Positions 26,164-34,019 are shown, counted from the first letter of the stretch. The stretch: DNA of 64,000 nucleotides from Eubacteriales bacterium (GCA_045636865.1 JAZTYJ010000023.1:13013-77012), one strand, 5' to 3'. Notes: generated by a model not told the origin, from the letters alone. A program made the numbers and translations.

Positions 26164-26316
26164 ATGTGCATTTTTTCAAATCTTTTCTGCTGTAACAGAA
26201 GAGGCAACTTAAGATCACATTGTCACCTTCGCACACGGATTGTCGATGCCGGTGGAAGAGATTCATGTGCCTGCCGGAGAAATTGCTGCGGATGTTGCTG
26301 CGACAGTGACTTTTAG
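26164..26316 (+). CDS. 50-aa cysteine-rich small protein (11 Cys)
   Basis: AAAGGAG RBS 7 nt before ATG 26164; occupies an otherwise empty intergenic space; SigK-like promoter upstream. Confidence 0.6.
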   Translation: MCIFSNLFCCNRRGNLRSHCHLRTRIVDAGGRDSCACRRNCCGCCCDSDF

Positions 26317-26340: not shown

Positions 26341-26369
26341 TTGACTTTATGAGAAAATAGTGTTAACAT
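26341..26369 (+). promoter_or_regulatory. SigA promoter of the T-box leader
   Basis: TTGACT-N17-TAACAT with extended TG. Confidence 0.7.
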
Positions 26370-26393
26370 TATAGTAATTAAAAATCACTTGAA

Positions 26394-26648
26394 CACGATG
26401 ATGAAATCAAGTACGTTCAGATGAACTCTCCCAGAGAGTCGCCGGTTGCTGTGAGGCGATGTGAGTCTTTGTGCGGAATACCTTTCGGAGTGGCTTTGCT
26501 GAAAGTTTTTCGATTAGGCAAAGACGGGAAAGCCCGATACAGCTTGAGGATCTGATTGGATTCGTTGAGGCTGCCGTGTGGCAGTAAATTGAGGTGGTAC
26601 CACGGAATTTTTTTCGTCCTCTGCTTGAATAGGCAGAGGGCGTTTTTT
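26394..26648 (+). ncRNA. T-box riboswitch leader with Tyr (UAC) specifier and terminator
   Basis: Stem I with AGTA, CAGAGAG and GCTG boxes; GAA-TAC at 26476-81; stems II, IIA/B and III; T-box AATTGAGGTGGTACCACG at 26587-604; antiterminator partner CGTCCTC; terminator at 26615-48. Confidence 0.92.
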
Positions 26649-26681
26649 GTTTTCTGCCGGAAAACGAAAAGGAGAGTTTTT

Positions 26682-28319
26682 ATGGTTATTATTGATTTGC
26701 TTGAAAAAAATGCAAGGCTTTACGGCTCGGAGGTTGCTCTTGTTGAGCTAAACCCATCGGAAGAGCGCGACAGCGTGACAACCTGGTGGGACTTTAATCT
26801 TATTGAAAGTGCGGGAAAAGACGCGCCCTACCGCCGTGAGCTTACCTGGAAGGATTTTGACAGACGTGCCAACCGTTTTGCTAACCTTCTTCTCAGCCGC
26901 GGTTTGAAAAAAGGCACAAAAGTCGGCATACTTCTTATGAACTGTATCGAATGGCTTCCGATATATTTCGGTATTCTCAAAGCCGGTTGCATAGCTGTTC
27001 CGATGAATTTCAGATTTTCGGGTGATGAGATAGAATATTGTCTTAATCTCGCTGATGTTGAGGTTCTGGTTTTCGGTCCCGAATTTATAAGCAGAATGGA
27101 CGGAGTTTACGATAAAGTCGAGAAAACCCACACCTTCTTTTATCTCGGAAAGGGTGGTCCGGACTATACGGAAGATTGTCTTGAACTTATGGGCTATTGT
27201 TCATCAAGTCAGCCGCCGATTGCACTTTCTGAAGAAGACCACGCAGCGATATACTTCTCATCCGGTACAACAGGATTCCCGAAAGCGATTTTACATAATC
27301 ACAAATCACTCATCTCATCCTGCAAAACAGAACAGAATCACCACTCGCAGTCAAGAGATGACGTTTTCCTGTGCATTCCGCCGCTTTATCACACGGGTGC
27401 AAAGATGCATTGGTTTGGCTCGCTTCTTTCAGGAAGCCGCGCTGTGCTTCTTCGCGGAGTAAAGCCCGAGTGGATTTTGAGAGCAGTCACGGAGGAAAAG
27501 TGCACAATCGTCTGGCTTCTCGTTCCGTGGGCACAGGATTTGCTCGATGCAATTGAGTCTGGGCGTCTTGACATAAATCAGTACAGGCTTTCACAGTGGC
27601 GTCTTATGCACATCGGTGCACAGCCTGTTCCGCCGAGTCTCATTCACCGTTGGCTCAAGGTTTTTCCGCATCATAAGTATGACACAAACTACGGTCTTTC
27701 AGAATCAATCGGACCCGGTTGCGTGCATCTCGGTGTTGAGAACGTTCACAAGGTCGGTGCGATTGGTAAGGCAGGCTTCGGCTGGGAAACAAAGATTGTT
27801 GACGAAAAAGGAAATGAAGTTGAGCGCGGAGACGTCGGTGAGCTCATAGTAAAGGGCGACGGTGTTATGCTTTGCTACTATAAAAACCCCGATGCTACGA
27901 ATGAAGTTTTAAAGGGTGAGTGGCTCTACACCGGTGATATGGCGCGCGAGGATGAAGACGGTTTTATCTATCTTGTAGACAGAAAGAAAGATGTCGTCAT
28001 TTCTGGTGGAGAGAACCTCTATCCGGTTCAGATTGAAGATTTCTTAAGAGCATATGACAAAATCAAAGACGTAGCAGTAATCGGACTTCCGGATGCTCGT
28101 CTTGGTGAAATTTGTGCGGCGATAATCGAAATCAAAGAAGGCCTTTCGTGTACACAGGAAGAAATTGATGCTTTCTGCGAGAGCCTTCCGCGATACAAAC
28201 GTCCGAAAAAGATTTTCTTCGATAAAGTTCCGAGAAACGCAACGGGTAAAATTGAAAAACCGGCGCTTCGTGAAAAATATTGCCACGGACGCCTCGTAGA
28301 AGCGCAGATAACAGGTTAA
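26682..28319 (+). CDS. class I adenylate-forming acyl-CoA synthetase (AMP-forming)
   Basis: FSSGTTGFPK, YGLSE, YTGD, DRKKDVVISGGEN and TGKI motifs; start reassigned to ATG 26682 after AAGGAG. Confidence 0.9.
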   Translation: MVIIDLLEKNARLYGSEVALVELNPSEERDSVTTWWDFNLIESAGKDAPYRRELTWKDFDRRANRFANLLLSRGLKKGTKVGILLMNCIEWLPIYFGILKAGCIAVPMNFRFSGDEIEYCLNLADVEVLVFGPEFISRMDGVYDKVEKTHTFFYLGKGGPDYTEDCLELMGYCSSSQPPIALSEEDHAAIYFSSGTTGFPKAILHNHKSLISSCKTEQNHHSQSRDDVFLCIPPLYHTGAKMHWFGSLLSGSRAVLLRGVKPEWILRAVTEEKCTIVWLLVPWAQDLLDAIESGRLDINQYRLSQWRLMHIGAQPVPPSLIHRWLKVFPHHKYDTNYGLSESIGPGCVHLGVENVHKVGAIGKAGFGWETKIVDEKGNEVERGDVGELIVKGDGVMLCYYKNPDATNEVLKGEWLYTGDMAREDEDGFIYLVDRKKDVVISGGENLYPVQIEDFLRAYDKIKDVAVIGLPDARLGEICAAIIEIKEGLSCTQEEIDAFCESLPRYKRPKKIFFDKVPRNATGKIEKPALREKYCHGRLVEAQITG

Positions 28320-28334
28320 AAGGAGTGTATCAAC

Positions 28335-29894
28335 ATGTTTGATCTCGGTATAAAGTTAGCAATGGTCATAGTATTCTTCGGGATTATGATCGGTGTAGGT
28401 TTATACTGCCGCAAAAACTCAACAGATGTTGATGGTTTCGTTCTCGGAGGAAGAAGTGTAGGTCCGTGGCTCACGGCATTTGCATACGGAACATCTTACT
28501 TCTCTGCGGTTGTTTTCGTAGGTTATGCAGGACAGTTTGGATGGAAGTACGGTATTGCAGCCACCTGGGCAGGTATCGGAAATGCACTTTTAGGTTCGCT
28601 CCTTGCTTGGGCGGTACTCGGAAGAAGAACTCGCATTATGACACAGCACCTAAAGAGTGCAACAATGCCGCAGTTTTTCGAGGCACGTTTTGCAAGCCGT
28701 TCTCTAAAGCTTGCATCATCAGCGATTATCTTTATTTTCCTCATTCCGTATACGGCATCACTTTTTAACGGTCTCAGCCGTCTTTTCGGAATGGCGTTTG
28801 ACATCGACTATTCGGTTTGCGTAATTATTATGGCAATTCTTACTGCAATTTACGTTATTGCCGGCGGATATATGGCAACTGCCATCAACGATTTTATTCA
28901 GGGTCTTATAATGCTTGTCGGAATCGTTGCAGTTATCTGGGCTGTTCTTGCAGGGCAGGGCGGTTTTATGGAGTCACTTGCAAAGCTTGGCGAGGTGAGT
29001 GATCCGACTGTTTCGGATGTTCCGGGCGTTTTTGCATCGTTCTTCGGACCTGATCCCATAAACCTTCTCGGTGTCGTTCTTCTCACATCTCTCGGCACGT
29101 GGGGACTTCCGCAGATGGTTCAGAAGTTCTATGCCATAAAGAGCGAAAAAGCTATAAACAAAGGAATGATTATTTCTACTCTGTTTGCCTTGGTTGTAGC
29201 GGGAGGCTGTTACTTCCTCGGCGGTTTCGGTCGTCTCTTCTCGGATAAGATTGATATTGCGGCAGGCGGATACGATTCAATAATACCGACGATGCTCTCA
29301 AGTCTTTCACCATTCCTTATTGCGGTTGTAATAGTGCTTGTTCTATCGGCGTCAATGTCAACTCTTTCATCGCTTGTTATGACATCAAGCTCAACGCTTA
29401 CGCTTGACTTCCTCAAGGATATCGTTAAGAAGGATATGAGCGAAAAGACACAGCTTTTCATAATCAGAGTTCTTATTGCCGTATTTATTGTAATTTCGGT
29501 AATTATTGCGATTGTTCAGCACAAATCAAACGTAAGCTTTATTGCACAGCTTATGGGCGTTTCCTGGGGTGCACTTGCAGGTGCGTTTCTTGCTCCGTTC
29601 CTTTATGGACTTTATTGGAAACGCGTTTCAAAGGCATCGGTCTGGGTCAGCTTTATTTTCTCAACGGTGGTTATGCTCGGAAATATGCTCGCAAAGGACA
29701 TTTTTCCGCAGATCCTCAAGTCTCCGATCAACGCAGGTGCATTTTGCATGATAGCAGGTCTCGTTATAGTTCCTGTCGTATCACTCTTTACAAGAGCACC
29801 CGATAAGTCGGTTACGGACAATGTGTTTTTATGTTATGATAAAAAAGTTCTTGTTTCGCAGAAGGATGCTATCGGCGAAACAATAAGTGATTAG
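28335..29894 (+). CDS. sodium:solute symporter (SSS) family protein
   Basis: FVLGGRS.GPW, YVIAGG..A...NDFIQG, GLPQ and SASMSTLSS motifs; multiple TM helices. Confidence 0.9.
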   Translation: MFDLGIKLAMVIVFFGIMIGVGLYCRKNSTDVDGFVLGGRSVGPWLTAFAYGTSYFSAVVFVGYAGQFGWKYGIAATWAGIGNALLGSLLAWAVLGRRTRIMTQHLKSATMPQFFEARFASRSLKLASSAIIFIFLIPYTASLFNGLSRLFGMAFDIDYSVCVIIMAILTAIYVIAGGYMATAINDFIQGLIMLVGIVAVIWAVLAGQGGFMESLAKLGEVSDPTVSDVPGVFASFFGPDPINLLGVVLLTSLGTWGLPQMVQKFYAIKSEKAINKGMIISTLFALVVAGGCYFLGGFGRLFSDKIDIAAGGYDSIIPTMLSSLSPFLIAVVIVLVLSASMSTLSSLVMTSSSTLTLDFLKDIVKKDMSEKTQLFIIRVLIAVFIVISVIIAIVQHKSNVSFIAQLMGVSWGALAGAFLAPFLYGLYWKRVSKASVWVSFIFSTVVMLGNMLAKDIFPQILKSPINAGAFCMIAGLVIVPVVSLFTRAPDKSVTDNVFLCYDKKVLVSQKDAIGETISD

Positions 29895-29905
29895 GAGGCA
29901 GAGAT

Positions 29906-31645
29906 ATGAAAAAACTTATGCTCGGAAACGAAGCGGTTGCAAGAGGTCTCTATGAGGCAGGCTGCAGCTTTGTTTCAAGCTATCCGGGAACACCGAGTAC
30001 GGAAATCACGGAAGCAGTTGCAAAATACGATGAAATTTACGCGGAGTGGGCACCTAATGAAAAGGTAGCGATGGAAGCTGCTTTCGGTGCATGCCTTGCA
30101 GGAAAAAGAAGTTTCTGCGGAATGAAGCACGTTGGTCTTAACGTAGCGGCAGACCCACTCTTTACCATTGCATACACAGGTGTAAACGGCGGTATGGTTA
30201 TCGGTGTTGCAGACGATCCGGGTATGCACAGCTCGCAGAATGAGCAGGATTCACGCCACTATGCAAAGGCATCAAAAATCCCCATGCTTGAGCCGGCAGA
30301 CTCTGCCGAGGCAGTAGCGTTTACAAAGCTTGCATTCGAGCTTTCGGAAAAGTTTGACACACCTGTTCTTCTTAAGATGTGCACGCGCGTCGCTCACTCG
30401 CAGAGCATCGTTGAGCCGGCAGACCGCGTAGAAGTAAAGAAAGACTATACAAAGAACGCACAGAAATACATTATGATGCCGGGTAATGCAAAGCTTCGTC
30501 ATCCGATAGTAGAGGAGAGAACACTTGCACTTTCAGAGTATGCAGAGACTGCTCCGTGCAACGTCTTTGAGGACGGCAGTGATAAGAGCATCGGTATCAT
30601 CACATCTTCGACATCTTATCAGTATGTAAAAGAGGTTCTTGGTGATAAGCATCCTGTGCTCAAGCTTGGTATGGTATGGCCGCTTCCGACAGAGAGCATC
30701 AAGAATCTTGCAAAGTCAGTTGATAAGCTCATTGTTGTTGAAGAGCTTGACGGCTTTATCGAGGAGCATTGCAAAAATCTCGGAATTGATGCAGCAGGAA
30801 AGGATATTTTCTCATGCATCGGCGAGCTCAGCCAGAATATTGTTTCGGAAAAGCTCGGAAATGGAGCAAAGGAAGGTGTTAAGCTTTCTGACAACATCCC
30901 GCCGAGACCTCCTGTTATGTGTGCAGGATGTCCCCACAGAGGCCTTTTCTATACTCTTGCAAAAAACAAAATTACGGTTATGGGTGATATCGGCTGCTAC
31001 ACACTTGGTGCAGTACCTCCGCTTTCTGCACTTGATGCAACGATCTGTATGGGTGCATCAATTTCAGGTCTTCACGGCTTTAATAAGGCAAATGAAGGCG
31101 CAAGTGATGGAAAGAGCGTTGCAGTGATCGGCGATTCAACCTTTATGCATTCAGGCATGACAGGTCTTGTTAATATCGCATATAACGGATCAAATTCAAC
31201 GGTTATCATTCTTGATAACTCGATAACAGGTATGACGGGACATCAGCAGAATCCGACAACAGGTTACAACCTAAAGGGCGATCCTGCATCAAAGATTGAC
31301 CTTGAAGCACTTTGCCGTGCGATGGGAATTAACAGAGTTTCGGTTGTTGACCCGTACAATCTCTCGGAGTGTGAAACTGTTTTAAAAGAAGAGCTTGCGG
31401 CAGAAGAGCCGTCAGTTATCATCTCACGCCGTCCGTGTGCACTTCTTAAATACGTTAAGCACAACAAACCGCTTGTTGTTGATGCCGATAAGTGCAAAAA
31501 CTGTAAGATGTGCATGAAGATAGGTTGCCCTGCAATCAGCATTGAAAACGGCAAGGCAAAGATAGATAACACTCTCTGCACCGGTTGCGGAGTATGTGAG
31601 CAGCTCTGTAAGTTTGATGCGCTTCATGCGCCGGAGGAGGTATAA
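29906..31645 (+). CDS. iorA: indolepyruvate:ferredoxin oxidoreductase alpha subunit
   Basis: LGNEAVARG, YPGTPSTE, MKHVGLNVAAD, MCAGCPHR, GDIGCY and GDSTF motifs; C-terminal 4Fe-4S Cys clusters. Confidence 0.95.
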   Translation: MKKLMLGNEAVARGLYEAGCSFVSSYPGTPSTEITEAVAKYDEIYAEWAPNEKVAMEAAFGACLAGKRSFCGMKHVGLNVAADPLFTIAYTGVNGGMVIGVADDPGMHSSQNEQDSRHYAKASKIPMLEPADSAEAVAFTKLAFELSEKFDTPVLLKMCTRVAHSQSIVEPADRVEVKKDYTKNAQKYIMMPGNAKLRHPIVEERTLALSEYAETAPCNVFEDGSDKSIGIITSSTSYQYVKEVLGDKHPVLKLGMVWPLPTESIKNLAKSVDKLIVVEELDGFIEEHCKNLGIDAAGKDIFSCIGELSQNIVSEKLGNGAKEGVKLSDNIPPRPPVMCAGCPHRGLFYTLAKNKITVMGDIGCYTLGAVPPLSALDATICMGASISGLHGFNKANEGASDGKSVAVIGDSTFMHSGMTGLVNIAYNGSNSTVIILDNSITGMTGHQQNPTTGYNLKGDPASKIDLEALCRAMGINRVSVVDPYNLSECETVLKEELAAEEPSVIISRRPCALLKYVKHNKPLVVDADKCKNCKMCMKIGCPAISIENGKAKIDNTLCTGCGVCEQLCKFDALHAPEEV

Positions 31646-31647
31646 TA

Positions 31648-32223
31648 ATGGAAACAAAAAACATTATGATAGTCGGCGTCGGAGGACAGGGAAGTCTTCT
31701 CGCTTCAAAGCTTCTTGGACGTCTTCTCCTCACAAAGGGTTACGATATAAAGGTATCTGAAGTTCACGGTATGAGTCAGCGCGGCGGAAGCGTTGTTACA
31801 TATGTCCGCTATGGTGACAAGGTTTATTCACCGATTATTGACAAGGGTGAAGCTGATTTTATCATTTCGTTTGAGCTTTTGGAGGCAGCGCGCTGGACGG
31901 AGTATCTCAAGAAAGACGGAAAAGTTATTGCAAACATACAGCAGATAAATCCGATGCCGGTCATCACAGGTGTTGCAGAGTATCCGAGTGAGCTTTCGGA
32001 GAAGATGAAAGCGGCAGGAATCGACATCGACGCTTTTGATGCCCTCAAGCTTGCTGTTGAGGCAGGAAGTGCAAAGGCTGTAAACATCGTTCTTATGGGA
32101 AGACTTTCTAACTACTTTGACGCATCTGTTGAAGAATGGATGAAGGCTATTGAAGAAAGCGTTCCTGAAAAGTTCCTTGAGATGAACAAAAAAGCATTTA
32201 TTCTCGGCAGAGATGCAAAATAA
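31648..32223 (+). CDS. iorB: indolepyruvate:ferredoxin oxidoreductase beta subunit
   Basis: GVGGQG and SEVHGMSQRGGSV motifs. Confidence 0.95.
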   Translation: METKNIMIVGVGGQGSLLASKLLGRLLLTKGYDIKVSEVHGMSQRGGSVVTYVRYGDKVYSPIIDKGEADFIISFELLEAARWTEYLKKDGKVIANIQQINPMPVITGVAEYPSELSEKMKAAGIDIDAFDALKLAVEAGSAKAVNIVLMGRLSNYFDASVEEWMKAIEESVPEKFLEMNKKAFILGRDAK

Positions 32224-32235
32224 GGAGATGCAAAA

Positions 32236-33534
32236 ATGAAGAATTACTACCAGCCGGAGATAGAAACCGCATCACGCGAGCAGATTCGCGCATGGCAGGA
32301 TGAACGTCTTGTAAAACAGGTGCAGCACGTATGGGACAATGTTCCGTATTATCGCAAGAAGATGGAAGATGCGGGAGTGTCACCGAGTGATATAAAGGGT
32401 GTAGCTGACCTTCATAAGCTTCCGTTTATAACAAAGGCAGATTTGCGCGATGCGTATCCGTACGGTCTTGTCGGAAAACCCATTTCCGAGTGTGTCCGCA
32501 TTCACTCAACATCAGGAACAACCGGAAAAAGAGTTATGGCATTTTACACACAGCACGACGTTGACCTCTGGGAAGACTGCTGTGCAAGAGCAATTGTTGC
32601 AGCAGGCGGAACAAAGGAAGATGTTGTTCACGTCGCTTACGGCTACGGTCTCTTTACGGGTGGTGCAGGTCTCCACGGCGGATCGCACAAGGTAGGAAGT
32701 CTTACGCTTCCGATGTCATCGGGAAACACGGACCGCCAGCTTCAGTTTATGACAGACCTCGGTTCAACCATTCTCTGCTGTACACCATCTTATGCTGCAT
32801 ATCTTGCAGAGTCAATTAAAGAAAAGGGTCTTAGTGATAAGATTAAACTCAAAGCAGGTATTTTCGGAGCTGAAGCATGGAGTGAAGAGATGCGCCGCGA
32901 TATCGAGAAACAGCTCGGAATCCGCGCATACGACATTTACGGTCTTACTGAAATTTCAGGTCCGGGTGTCAGCTTTGAATGTGAAGAGCAGATAGGTATG
33001 CACATCAACGAAGACCACTTCATCGCGGAAATTATCGACCCGGATACAGGTGAGGTTCTTCCTGAGGGTAGCAAGGGTGAGCTCGTATTTACCTGCATAA
33101 CAAAAGAGGCATTTCCGCTTCTTCGCTATCGCACACGCGATATCTGCGTTCTCTCAACAAAACCGTGCTCATGCGGCAGAACTCATATGAAGATGTCAAA
33201 GCCGATGGGAAGAAGTGATGATATGCTCATCATCCGTGGCGTAAACGTATTCCCGTCACAGATTGAAACTGTTCTTATCGAGCAGGGATATCCGGCAAAC
33301 TATCAGATTGTTGTTGACCGCGTAAATAATTCTGATACGCTTGAGGTTATGGTAGAGATGAATCAGGAAAACTTCTCGGATTCACTCCGCCAGATTACCG
33401 ATATGGAAAAGAGCCTTGTTTCTGCGCTTAAGGCGATGCTCGGAATTGCGGCAAAGGTAAAGCTTGTCGCTCCGAAGACAATCGCACGAAGCGAAGGTAA
33501 AGCAGTAAGAATTATTGATAATCGAAAGATTTAA
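32236..33534 (+). CDS. paaK: phenylacetate--CoA ligase
   Basis: HSTSGTTG, YGYGLFTGG, GIFGAE, DIYGLTE, RYRTRD and GRSDDMLIIRGVNVFP motifs. Confidence 0.93.
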   Translation: MKNYYQPEIETASREQIRAWQDERLVKQVQHVWDNVPYYRKKMEDAGVSPSDIKGVADLHKLPFITKADLRDAYPYGLVGKPISECVRIHSTSGTTGKRVMAFYTQHDVDLWEDCCARAIVAAGGTKEDVVHVAYGYGLFTGGAGLHGGSHKVGSLTLPMSSGNTDRQLQFMTDLGSTILCCTPSYAAYLAESIKEKGLSDKIKLKAGIFGAEAWSEEMRRDIEKQLGIRAYDIYGLTEISGPGVSFECEEQIGMHINEDHFIAEIIDPDTGEVLPEGSKGELVFTCITKEAFPLLRYRTRDICVLSTKPCSCGRTHMKMSKPMGRSDDMLIIRGVNVFPSQIETVLIEQGYPANYQIVVDRVNNSDTLEVMVEMNQENFSDSLRQITDMEKSLVSALKAMLGIAAKVKLVAPKTIARSEGKAVRIIDNRKI

Positions 33535-33549
33535 GGGAGGATATTTGTT

Positions 33550-33978
33550 ATGATCAATCAGATTTCCGTATTTCTTGAAAATAAGGCAGGGGAGCTTGCC
33601 GAGATCACGAAAATTCTTGCTGAAAACAACGTAAACCTCCGCGCAATTTCAATTGCAGAAACATCAGACTACGGTGTTTTGCGCATGATTGCGGATGATG
33701 CGGAACATGCATCGCGTGTACTTATGAAAAACGGCAACGTTATTTCAATGACACCGGTTTCCGTTATCGAAGTTCCTGACCGCCCGGCAGGTCTTTCGGA
33801 TGTTCTTGGTATTCTCGCAAAAGCAGATATTGACATTGAATATATGTACTCACTCTTTACACAGGAACAGGGAAAGGCATATATGGTATTTCGTGTAAGT
33901 GATAAGCAGAAGCTTATGAATGAAATCAAAAATAACAAGTTAAAGACTGTCAGCGAAGAAGAACTCGGTCTTAAGTAA
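33550..33978 (+). CDS. double ACT-domain protein
   Basis: QISVFLENKAG and VPDRPAGL..DIEYMY; the family is typically found next to paaK. Confidence 0.88.
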   Translation: MINQISVFLENKAGELAEITKILAENNVNLRAISIAETSDYGVLRMIADDAEHASRVLMKNGNVISMTPVSVIEVPDRPAGLSDVLGILAKADIDIEYMYSLFTQEQGKAYMVFRVSDKQKLMNEIKNNKLKTVSEEELGLK

Positions 33979-34019
33979 AATAAAAAACGGTTCCACAAGG
34001 AACCGTTTTTTATTTTACT
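33974..34019. terminator. bidirectional terminator
   Basis: Perfect 21-bp inverted repeat AGTAAAATAAAAAACGGTTCC-ACAA-GGAACCGTTTTTTATTTTACT. Confidence 0.85.

Follow-up and report, generated by a model that had tools for sequence, protein, structure and literature searches.

A tyrosine T-box riboswitch ahead of a probable salvage operon making phenylalanine and tyrosine from aryl acids in a gut Clostridia genome

Reductive carboxylation of phenylacetate and of branched-chain acids by rumen bacteria was reportedly described by Allison and co-workers in the 1960s. T-boxes switch genes on upon starvation for the cognate amino acid, as set out in the survey of Wels (Wels 2008, PMC2494555), which also cites the UAC to UUC switch engineered in tyrS by Grundy and Henkin and describes T-box control of tyrosine biosynthesis and of phenylalanine-4-hydroxylase in the Bacillus cereus group. 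In Methanococcus maripaludis, aryl acids feed a second pathway of aromatic amino acid synthesis that depends on indolepyruvate:ferredoxin oxidoreductase (IOR) (Porat 2004, as cited in PMC4162585). Here we analyse positions 26341-33978 of a stretch of 64,000 nucleotides (nt) from an Eubacteriales bacterium (GCA_045636865.1, JAZTYJ010000023.1:13013-77012; the whole of this stretch is called the window), where a T-box leader with a tyrosine (Tyr) specifier precedes six genes that include iorA and iorB. The genome is a metagenome-assembled genome (MAG) of 1.65 Mb in 26 contigs, 90.9% complete, from an Oscillospirales-type Clostridia of the host gut. It is likely that this operon serves the anabolic salvage of phenylalanine (Phe) and tyrosine from aryl acids, alongside an intact shikimate pathway, a direction that we infer from its regulation and its gene content.

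The leader is made up of the following features, with all coordinates counted from the first letter of the window.

26341-26369, + strand: promoter-like site TTGACT, 17 nt spacer, TAACAT, with TG before the -10 (9/12 matches in a consensus scan)
26389-26624, + strand: T-box leader with Stem I, Stem II/IIA-B region, Stem III and antiterminator (Rfam RF00230)
26479-26481, + strand: specifier codon UAC (Tyr), followed by C (register from the cmscan alignment)
26595-26598, + strand: UGGU of the T-box bulge, partner of the tRNA 3' ACCA end (sequence and RF00230 alignment)
26615-26652, + strand: leader terminator hairpin and U tract (12 pairs, 7 of them G-C, tail TTTTTTGTTT)

The RF00230 match runs over the full model (positions 1-219 of 219) and scores 125.7 bits against a gathering score of 93 (E 1.8e-27, cmscan). 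In the same alignment the AGAGA bulge of Stem I lies at 26433-26438 as AGAGAG, the conserved T-box sequence GGUGGUACCACG lies at 26593-26604, and the 3' side of the specifier loop reads GAA-UAC-C (26476-26482), followed by the UUUC strand that closes the loop. Folding gave a terminator stem at 26615-26642 with a minimum free energy of -33.9 kcal/mol (z -3.2), and its 5' arm (26615-26624) is at the same time the 3' strand of the antiterminator, so that the two folds are mutually exclusive. Across 19 distinct related leaders the modelled helices pair in 94.8% of cells, a figure favoured by the alignment having been fitted to the model itself; compensatory change is seen at 17 of the 25 pairs, slid controls gave 36-49%, and the pairing value was not attained in any of 500 shuffles. 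The covariance model score and the covariation together exclude a chance match, and on its sequence the leader is a class I (transcription-terminating) T-box riboswitch reading tRNA-Tyr. The promoter-like site, which is sigma-70-like and precedes the match to the T-box model by about 20 nt, is an inferred candidate for the leader promoter. Just 5' of it lies a frame of 50 codons with 11 cysteines (26164-26316, + strand, ending ...CCGCCCDSDF), which has a Shine-Dalgarno-like AAGGAG upstream and a weak terminator-like hairpin at 26294-26310 before the promoter; this may encode a small cysteine-rich peptide or may be a chance frame.

The base 3' of a T-box specifier is usually a purine, and because the base that follows UAC here is C the register of the specifier was cross-checked four ways. 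Four tyrS leaders from the same order (L114, L138, L142 and L146) carry UAC at the same position, and one of them, L114, from a genome of the same family, has an identical GAA-UAC-C loop. Reading the six other T-boxes of this genome in the same register gave CUC, GUC, AUC, GUA, UUC and UGG, and the genes downstream agree with the codons (CUC with a LeuA-like protein, GUC with valS, GUA with a ligase-IlvE-Vor unit, UUC with pheS and UGG with a TrpB2-like enzyme), the AUC (Ile) leader preceding only an MbcS-like ligase. The genome's tRNA-Tyr(GUA) has A73 as its discriminator and thus ends in ...A-CCA, which fits the UGGU bulge; its tRNA-Phe also has A73, and as a control the Trp T-box carries UGGC and tRNA-Trp carries G73. 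Two shifted registers were rejected. A threonine reading (ACC) is disfavoured because tRNA-Thr(GGU) carries U73 and would need UGGA, and orthologous loops that have UUC at this position would give UCC when shifted, while an asparagine reading (AAU) would take its first two bases from the loop's conserved GAA, a motif that the genome's other T-boxes retain; tRNA-Asn was not found in the assembly, so this codon has no discriminator to compare.

The six genes and the hairpin that closes the operon are as follows.

26682-28319, + strand: FadD-like AMP-forming acyl-CoA ligase, 545 amino acids (PF00501, PF13193)
28335-29894, + strand: transporter of the sodium:solute symporter (SSS) family, 519 amino acids (PF00474, 200.5 bits against 22.8)
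29906-31645, + strand: IorA, indolepyruvate:ferredoxin oxidoreductase alpha subunit, with a thiamine pyrophosphate (TPP) domain and 2 x [4Fe-4S] (TIGR03336)
31648-32223, + strand: IorB, beta subunit (NF005325, 277.9 bits against 230; PF01558)
32236-33534, + strand: PaaK-like phenylacetate-CoA ligase, 432 amino acids (TIGR02155; PF14535 C-terminal domain)
33550-33978, + strand: ACT-domain-pair protein, 142 amino acids (PF19571, 93.9 bits)
about 33974-34019, unstranded: bidirectional terminator hairpin closing the operon (-28 kcal/mol, z -11.6)

The genes are separated, in order, by 15, 11, 2, 12 and 15 nt, and none of 200 shuffles folded as well as the terminal hairpin, within which a convergent glycosyltransferase gene ends at 34015. 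Both Ior subunits score over their NCBIfam equivalog cut-offs with the expected domains (for IorA 713.5 bits against 650.9 with TIGR03336, together with POR_N (PF01855), TPP_enzyme_C (PF02775) and Fer4), and this is the only IorA in the genome. The original prediction, made from the sequence alone, had described a complete T-box with UAC at 26479-26481 and a UGGU bulge suited to an A discriminator, followed by these six tightly spaced genes and a single terminator, and each of these points was borne out, the specifier in exactly the register proposed. Chemistry of AMP-forming ligases drives an acid towards its thioester; both ligases are of this family and the operon holds no ATP-conserving, thioester-cleaving enzyme. 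The FadD-like ligase falls under every NCBIfam cut-off, and a PDB sequence search gave FadD13, FadD5, feruloyl-CoA synthetase, malonyl-CoA synthetase and 4CL as its nearest solved relatives (E 1e-69 and weaker). The region's best promoter-like match lies inside iorB (31838-31865, + strand, TTGACA, 16 nt, TATCAT, 11/12), about 370 nt 5' of paaK, and an internal promoter for paaK and the ACT gene is conceivable because in many relatives these two form a separate T-box unit.

To place the operon among its relatives, loci were collected both by IorA and by leader. Searching a collection of species-representative genomes with IorA gave 549 relatives, of which the best 80 (69-89% identity) were kept; nearly all of these are gut or rumen MAGs (Oscillospiraceae, Acutalibacteraceae, Ruminococcus, Clostridia and others). 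An nhmmer search with a hidden Markov model of the genome's seven T-boxes found leaders at 14 of the 80 loci but missed known ones, and it was replaced by a motif scan and a covariance model for which 12 such leaders were combined with the six other T-boxes of the genome. A T-box lies inside the ior operon at 12 of the 80 loci, before the FadD-like ligase in ten and between iorB and paaK in two. T-boxes in L024 and L028 (AUC, before a gene for 1048 amino acids, the size of IleS) and in L095 (CUC) are near ior operons and were rejected as not being part of them. Two loci titled 'uncultured Chloroflexi bacterium' (L056 and L057) have the same Tyr leader and a ligase-iorAB-paaK-ACT operon, and the titles look like mislabels because these operons group with those of Clostridia on the ligase tree. 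Across the loci compared, T-box control is a lineage-specific addition to a widespread operon.

A search of the window's own family with the covariance model covered 32 genomes including this one; the best-match locus was classified in 30 and two had no locus. Seventeen of the 30 leaders precede a FadD-like ligase (12 UAC, 5 UUC), eight precede paaK (all UUC) and one precedes tyrS (UAC), the remaining four being Leu leaders, which are uninformative. An even sample of the order (151 genomes, 42 with a strong match) added 23 new loci: ten UUC leaders before paaK, four UAC before an SSS-like gene, two UAC before the ligase, three UAC before tyrS, one UAC before an EamA transporter and three Leu leaders. 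Pooling gave 58 classified leaders, 54 of them distinct once identical ones were dropped, with specifier codons read by eye from printed loops in register with the model alignment. Among the 54, UAC precedes the FadD-like ligase in 19, an SSS-like gene in four, tyrS in four and EamA in one, and UUC precedes the ligase in six and paaK in 20, counts that are descriptive and not prevalences because the leaders were found by a model seeded from this leader type. The survey of orthologous operons suggested with the original prediction had envisaged Tyr, Phe and Trp specifiers; Tyr and Phe were both seen, while no UGG (Trp) or non-aromatic specifier occurred on these gene families in the 54 distinct leaders. 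The EamA-family gene (290 amino acids, L145:1764-2633, G098) which follows a Tyr (UAC) T-box is a candidate carrier of tyrosine or an aryl compound.

On a tree of the ligase (first 425 residues, 23 operons) the Tyr/Phe label needs at least four changes, a minimum forced by well-supported branches, and in one example a UUC operon is nested among UAC operons with branch lengths of 0.02-0.05. Each flip is a single A to U or U to A change at the second codon position in a loop that is otherwise conserved, and it needs no change in the bulge because tRNA-Tyr and tRNA-Phe both have A73. The flipping of the specifier between Tyr and Phe argues that the operon supplies both amino acids and that either can be used as the signal. 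Stand-alone paaK-ACT units always have Phe leaders, paaK orthologues of relatives (73-76% identity) lying directly 3' of UUC leaders in 20 of 20 cases, and ligase or symporter units mostly have Tyr leaders; in genomes G168 and G043 the two kinds occur together, an SSS-like gene being preceded by a Tyr leader and paaK-ACT by a Phe leader of its own. This distribution suggests two putative branches, one from phenylacetate to Phe through PaaK and the ACT protein, the other from 4-hydroxyphenylacetate to Tyr through the FadD-like ligase and perhaps the symporter.

A narrower route, in which 4-hydroxyphenylacetate enters through the symporter, is activated by the first ligase and yields nothing but Tyr, draws on the same counts: the specifier here is UAC, and Tyr leaders accompany the FadD-like ligase in 19 of 25 cases and the SSS-like gene in 4 of 4, with Phe leaders on PaaK in 20 of 20. 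The original prediction had likewise taken the operon to be Tyr-specific, which did not survive the finding of relatives with UUC in the same loop and at least four switches between the two. Also present in the operon is the PaaK-like ligase, which in stand-alone units has a Phe leader every time, six ligase-first operons carry UUC and some of these are near-identical to the Tyr type, IOR accepts a broad range of aromatic substrates, and the matches of ligase and symporter are generic and lend no support to 4-hydroxyphenylacetate in particular. We therefore consider a Tyr- or 4-hydroxyphenylacetate-specific operon unlikely, and less likely than one for the joint salvage of Phe and Tyr.

Other T-boxes in this genome are found on genes of related kinds. 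Four of its seven T-box matches are on operons with acid-CoA ligases (Tyr, Val, Ile and Leu), and two of these operons include a 2-oxoacid:ferredoxin oxidoreductase. Tandem Ile (AUC) and Val (GUA) T-boxes at G000:C4:107933-117500 (locus L008:340-9686) each precede an MbcS-like acyl-CoA ligase extended at its N terminus by about 230-260 amino acids; the extension holds a helix-turn-helix and a cupin in the Val copy and a cupin in the Ile copy. In the Val unit the ligase is followed by IlvE, a CbiA/MinD-like protein of 222 amino acids and VorB/A/C, and the direction of this unit is explicitly anabolic because the aminotransferase (IlvE) is inside the operon; ilvC was not found in the genome, the best match scoring 20.7 bits. 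Judged by gene content, these units look like T-box-gated synthesis of Val and Ile from isobutyrate and 2-methylbutyrate. A LeuA-like protein and a further ligase lie downstream of the Leu T-box. At G000:C17:50530-52216 (locus L010:286-1716), a T-box with a Trp (UGG) specifier and UGGC in its bulge stands ahead of a TrpB2-like enzyme (NF009057, 673.8 bits against 366), which suggests a possible tRNA-Trp-gated salvage of indole.

Auxotrophy can be rejected as the reason for the operon. The genome was thought at the outset possibly to lack tyrA, pheA or aro genes, but the complete set is present: DAHP synthase, tyrA, aroB, aroA, aroC and a chorismate mutase-prephenate dehydratase (CM-PDT) are clustered on contig C19, an aroE-aroK fusion is on C14 and aroQ is on C4, type I dehydroquinase being absent from the genome. 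With this set complete, salvage would be a second, starvation-induced route and not a compensation for auxotrophy.

The mechanism that we propose would begin with uncharged tRNA-Tyr, whose GUA anticodon would pair with the UAC specifier while its free ACCA end pairs with the UGGU bulge, and the antiterminator stabilised in this way would let RNA polymerase read through the terminator at 26615-26642 into the six genes. Aryl-acetates excreted by other gut microbes would be taken up, possibly by the SSS symporter, and converted to CoA thioesters by the two AMP-forming ligases, phenylacetate being the most likely substrate of the PaaK-like enzyme, and 4-hydroxyphenylacetate or a different aryl acid that of the FadD-like one. 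IorAB would then carboxylate the aryl-acetyl-CoA reductively to arylpyruvates, using reduced ferredoxin and CO2, and an unlinked aminotransferase would convert these to Phe and Tyr; three full-length class I/II aminotransferase genes (PF00155) are found elsewhere in the genome. The ACT-pair protein probably provides amino-acid feedback at the level of the enzymes, and the operon would serve both Phe and Tyr its sensor reading Tyr in this genome and Phe in close relatives.

Some structural predictions bear on this feedback step. The ACT-pair gene is within 66 nt of paaK in 48 of the 55 loci that have both, and a prediction of the PaaK-ACT complex with paired alignments gave weak support, scoring 0.50 where the best of three controls scored 0.00; at least 89% of contacts were shared between runs, and the partner has a predicted local distance difference test (pLDDT) score of at least 84. 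Among 80 solved complexes 58 reach the mark used for such predictions, as do 2 of 110 mismatched pairs, and scores of 0.60 or below include only seven of the 80 solved complexes and both of the mismatched pairs that pass. As a hypothesis, the ACT protein is a candidate amino-acid-binding regulator of PaaK, the two forming a predicted regulatory pair.

Several observations weigh against the salvage of aryl acids as we propose it, or against parts of it. In bacteria, most accounts of IOR present it as acting oxidatively, with arylacetates as products. No T-box was found in 57 of the 69 informative IorA operons, those with at least 400 nt upstream of the first recognised gene (11 of the 80 loci were too short upstream and were left out), and as only 12 of 69 have one the argument from regulation does not extend to operons without a leader. 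The complete de novo aromatic route means that salvage is not required, and no aminotransferase is present in the operon or its flanks. The solved relatives of the FadD-like ligase are all generic ANL enzymes and allow no inference on its substrate, and the PaaK-like protein is so named, and not PaaK, because its 509 bits with TIGR02155 are below the equivalog cut-off of 646.3. The symporter is under the substrate-specific NCBIfam cut-offs (PutP 211 against 515, PanF 161 against 328, ActP 47 against 750) and the Atlas places it in generic SSF clusters only; in two genomes (L155 and L152) a Tyr leader is followed by an SSS-like gene while the retrieved DNA shows none of the remaining operon genes, and this lone arrangement suggests that the symporter could import tyrosine itself. 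Its substrate could be an aryl acid or tyrosine. To these may be added the seeding of the leader survey and the C, in place of a purine, after the specifier. In one metatranscriptome 6% of the sampled words were present, and the 41 short contigs at 90% likeness come from relatives (two at 99% or more, eight at 95-99% and 31 at 90-95%, touching 21 of 30 bins); these are contigs only, in which DNA carry-over is possible, and they give no support for transcription, leader termination or habitat.

Some of these points would also fit a catabolic operon, in which IorAB oxidises arylpyruvates to aryl-acetyl-CoA and the T-box is incidental or serves only an SSS amino acid importer: IOR is commonly annotated and studied as arylacetate-forming in gut anaerobes, most orthologous operons (57 of the 69 informative ones) have no T-box, and in the DNA retrieved from two genomes SSS-like genes stand alone after Tyr leaders. 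T-box-controlled transporters, moreover, usually import the cognate amino acid, according to the account of Wels (Wels 2008, PMC2494555). Catabolic use is nevertheless implausible because a T-box induces its genes when the cognate tRNA is uncharged, and degrading aromatic amino acids while tRNA-Tyr is uncharged would be counter-productive. The two AMP-forming ligases, with no ATP-conserving enzyme to cleave their thioesters in the operon, also speak against it, the first gene after the T-box is the ligase and not a transporter in 25 distinct leaders and paaK in 20, and the parallel Val unit combines IlvE with Vor in a genome without ilvC. We hold a catabolic role to be quite improbable, and the original claim that an operon induced by Tyr starvation runs anabolically gains comparative support from the Tyr- and Phe-only leaders, the AMP-forming ligases and the Val T-box unit. 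That the leader might be a decayed or constitutive relic of a tyrS T-box which regulates nothing is barely credible, for although a C follows the specifier and the genome's own tyrS has no T-box among the seven found, the full-length RF00230 match is well over the gathering score, the terminator/antiterminator overlap is intact, the helices are kept by compensatory changes in 19 distinct leaders and the specifier is only ever UAC or UUC in the 54 distinct leaders while the flanking stems vary.

The genes that flank the operon are unrelated to it (gpsA, a pseudouridine synthase, an AI-2E family transporter and murC). Elsewhere in the window there are a ZMP/ZTP riboswitch (RF01750, 37897-37995, + strand, 64.2 bits against 39) and a lysine riboswitch (RF00168, 52970-53140, - strand, 102.6 bits against 30).

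If the salvage of Phe and Tyr is the function of this operon, it bears on how similar gene clusters are read. IOR/PaaK clusters of gut anaerobes are routinely taken as producers of phenylacetate, 4-hydroxyphenylacetate and indoleacetate, which are host-active metabolites, and a starvation-sensing T-box upstream is sequence-level evidence on the direction of flux: lineages with the T-box need these genes when Tyr or Phe is short, and are therefore probably consumers of aryl-acetates that incorporate CO2 into amino acids. The T-box specifier could then serve as a cheap genomic marker which separates anabolic from catabolic ior operons in metagenomes, and the association suggests substrates for an uncharacterised ligase and symporter, gives a genetic and regulatory basis to classical rumen reductive carboxylation, and, through the recurrent changes between Tyr and Phe, illustrates how a single base can re-target a riboswitch. 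Only tentatively do we go further, to a joint reading whose parts would hold together and which is possible, though we would not expect it to be right in every part. According to this, tRNA charging might gate a set of reductive-carboxylation salvage routes in small-genome gut and rumen Oscillospirales; the FadD-like ligase and the SSS symporter might form an undescribed branch for uptake and activation of 4-hydroxyphenylacetate on the way to Tyr, and PaaK with the ACT protein a feedback-regulated branch from phenylacetate to Phe; one A to U or U to A change in the specifier might let lineages choose which amino acid reports demand; and these bacteria might be net consumers of aryl-acetates that would otherwise go to p-cresol or phenylacetylglutamine. 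The idea in the original prediction of a CO2-fixing route of cross-feeding that could compete with p-cresol producers is likewise speculative.

No relevant paper came up in literature searches pairing T-box with IOR, PaaK or reductive carboxylation, and in the text of the T-box surveys of Wels 2008 (PMC2494555) and Sun 2013 there is no oxidoreductase, phenylacetate, indolepyruvate or acyl-CoA ligase, from which their supplementary tables may differ. As a T-box the leader is unremarkable within RF00230, and precedents exist for the chemistry; it is the combination of T-box and chemistry that appears to be undescribed.

The nearest described leaders are the class I T-boxes of tyrS (L114, L138, L142 and L146, as well as that of Bacillus subtilis tyrS), which belong to the same Rfam family, have UAC at the same position in the loop, and share with the leader described here the UGGU bulge for an A73 tRNA and the terminator/antiterminator switch. 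They differ in that what is controlled here is not an aminoacyl-tRNA synthetase but a ligase-symporter-IorAB-PaaK-ACT operon, and in the C that follows the codon. The natural one-base flips between UAC and UUC mirror the engineered tyrS switch, as it is cited in PMC2494555. In the Bacillus cereus group, as described in the same source, a Tyr-type T-box likewise turns on an alternative way of making tyrosine and not only tyrS, but there it acts on the shikimate route and on Phe hydroxylation, and the account includes no 2-oxoacid:ferredoxin oxidoreductase or CoA ligase. With the route of M. maripaludis, as summarised in PMC4162585, the operon has in common IorAB, aryl-acid precursors and a coexisting de novo pathway, whereas here the organism is a bacterium, the operon includes dedicated AMP-forming ligases, a symporter and an ACT protein under a T-box, and the function is one deduced from genes.

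Closer at hand, the Val operon of the same genome (G000:C4, L008) has the same order of T-box, AMP-forming acid ligase and 2-oxoacid:ferredoxin oxidoreductase, but it would act on branched-chain acids with an in-operon aminotransferase in a genome where ilvC was not found, whereas for the aromatic amino acids the de novo route is intact. The rumen work attributed to Allison is said to concern the same chemistry as that proposed here, in a type of habitat shared with the related ruminant and gut MAG loci of our survey; that work reportedly offered physiological labelling without genes or regulation, while the operon described here offers genes and regulation without physiology.

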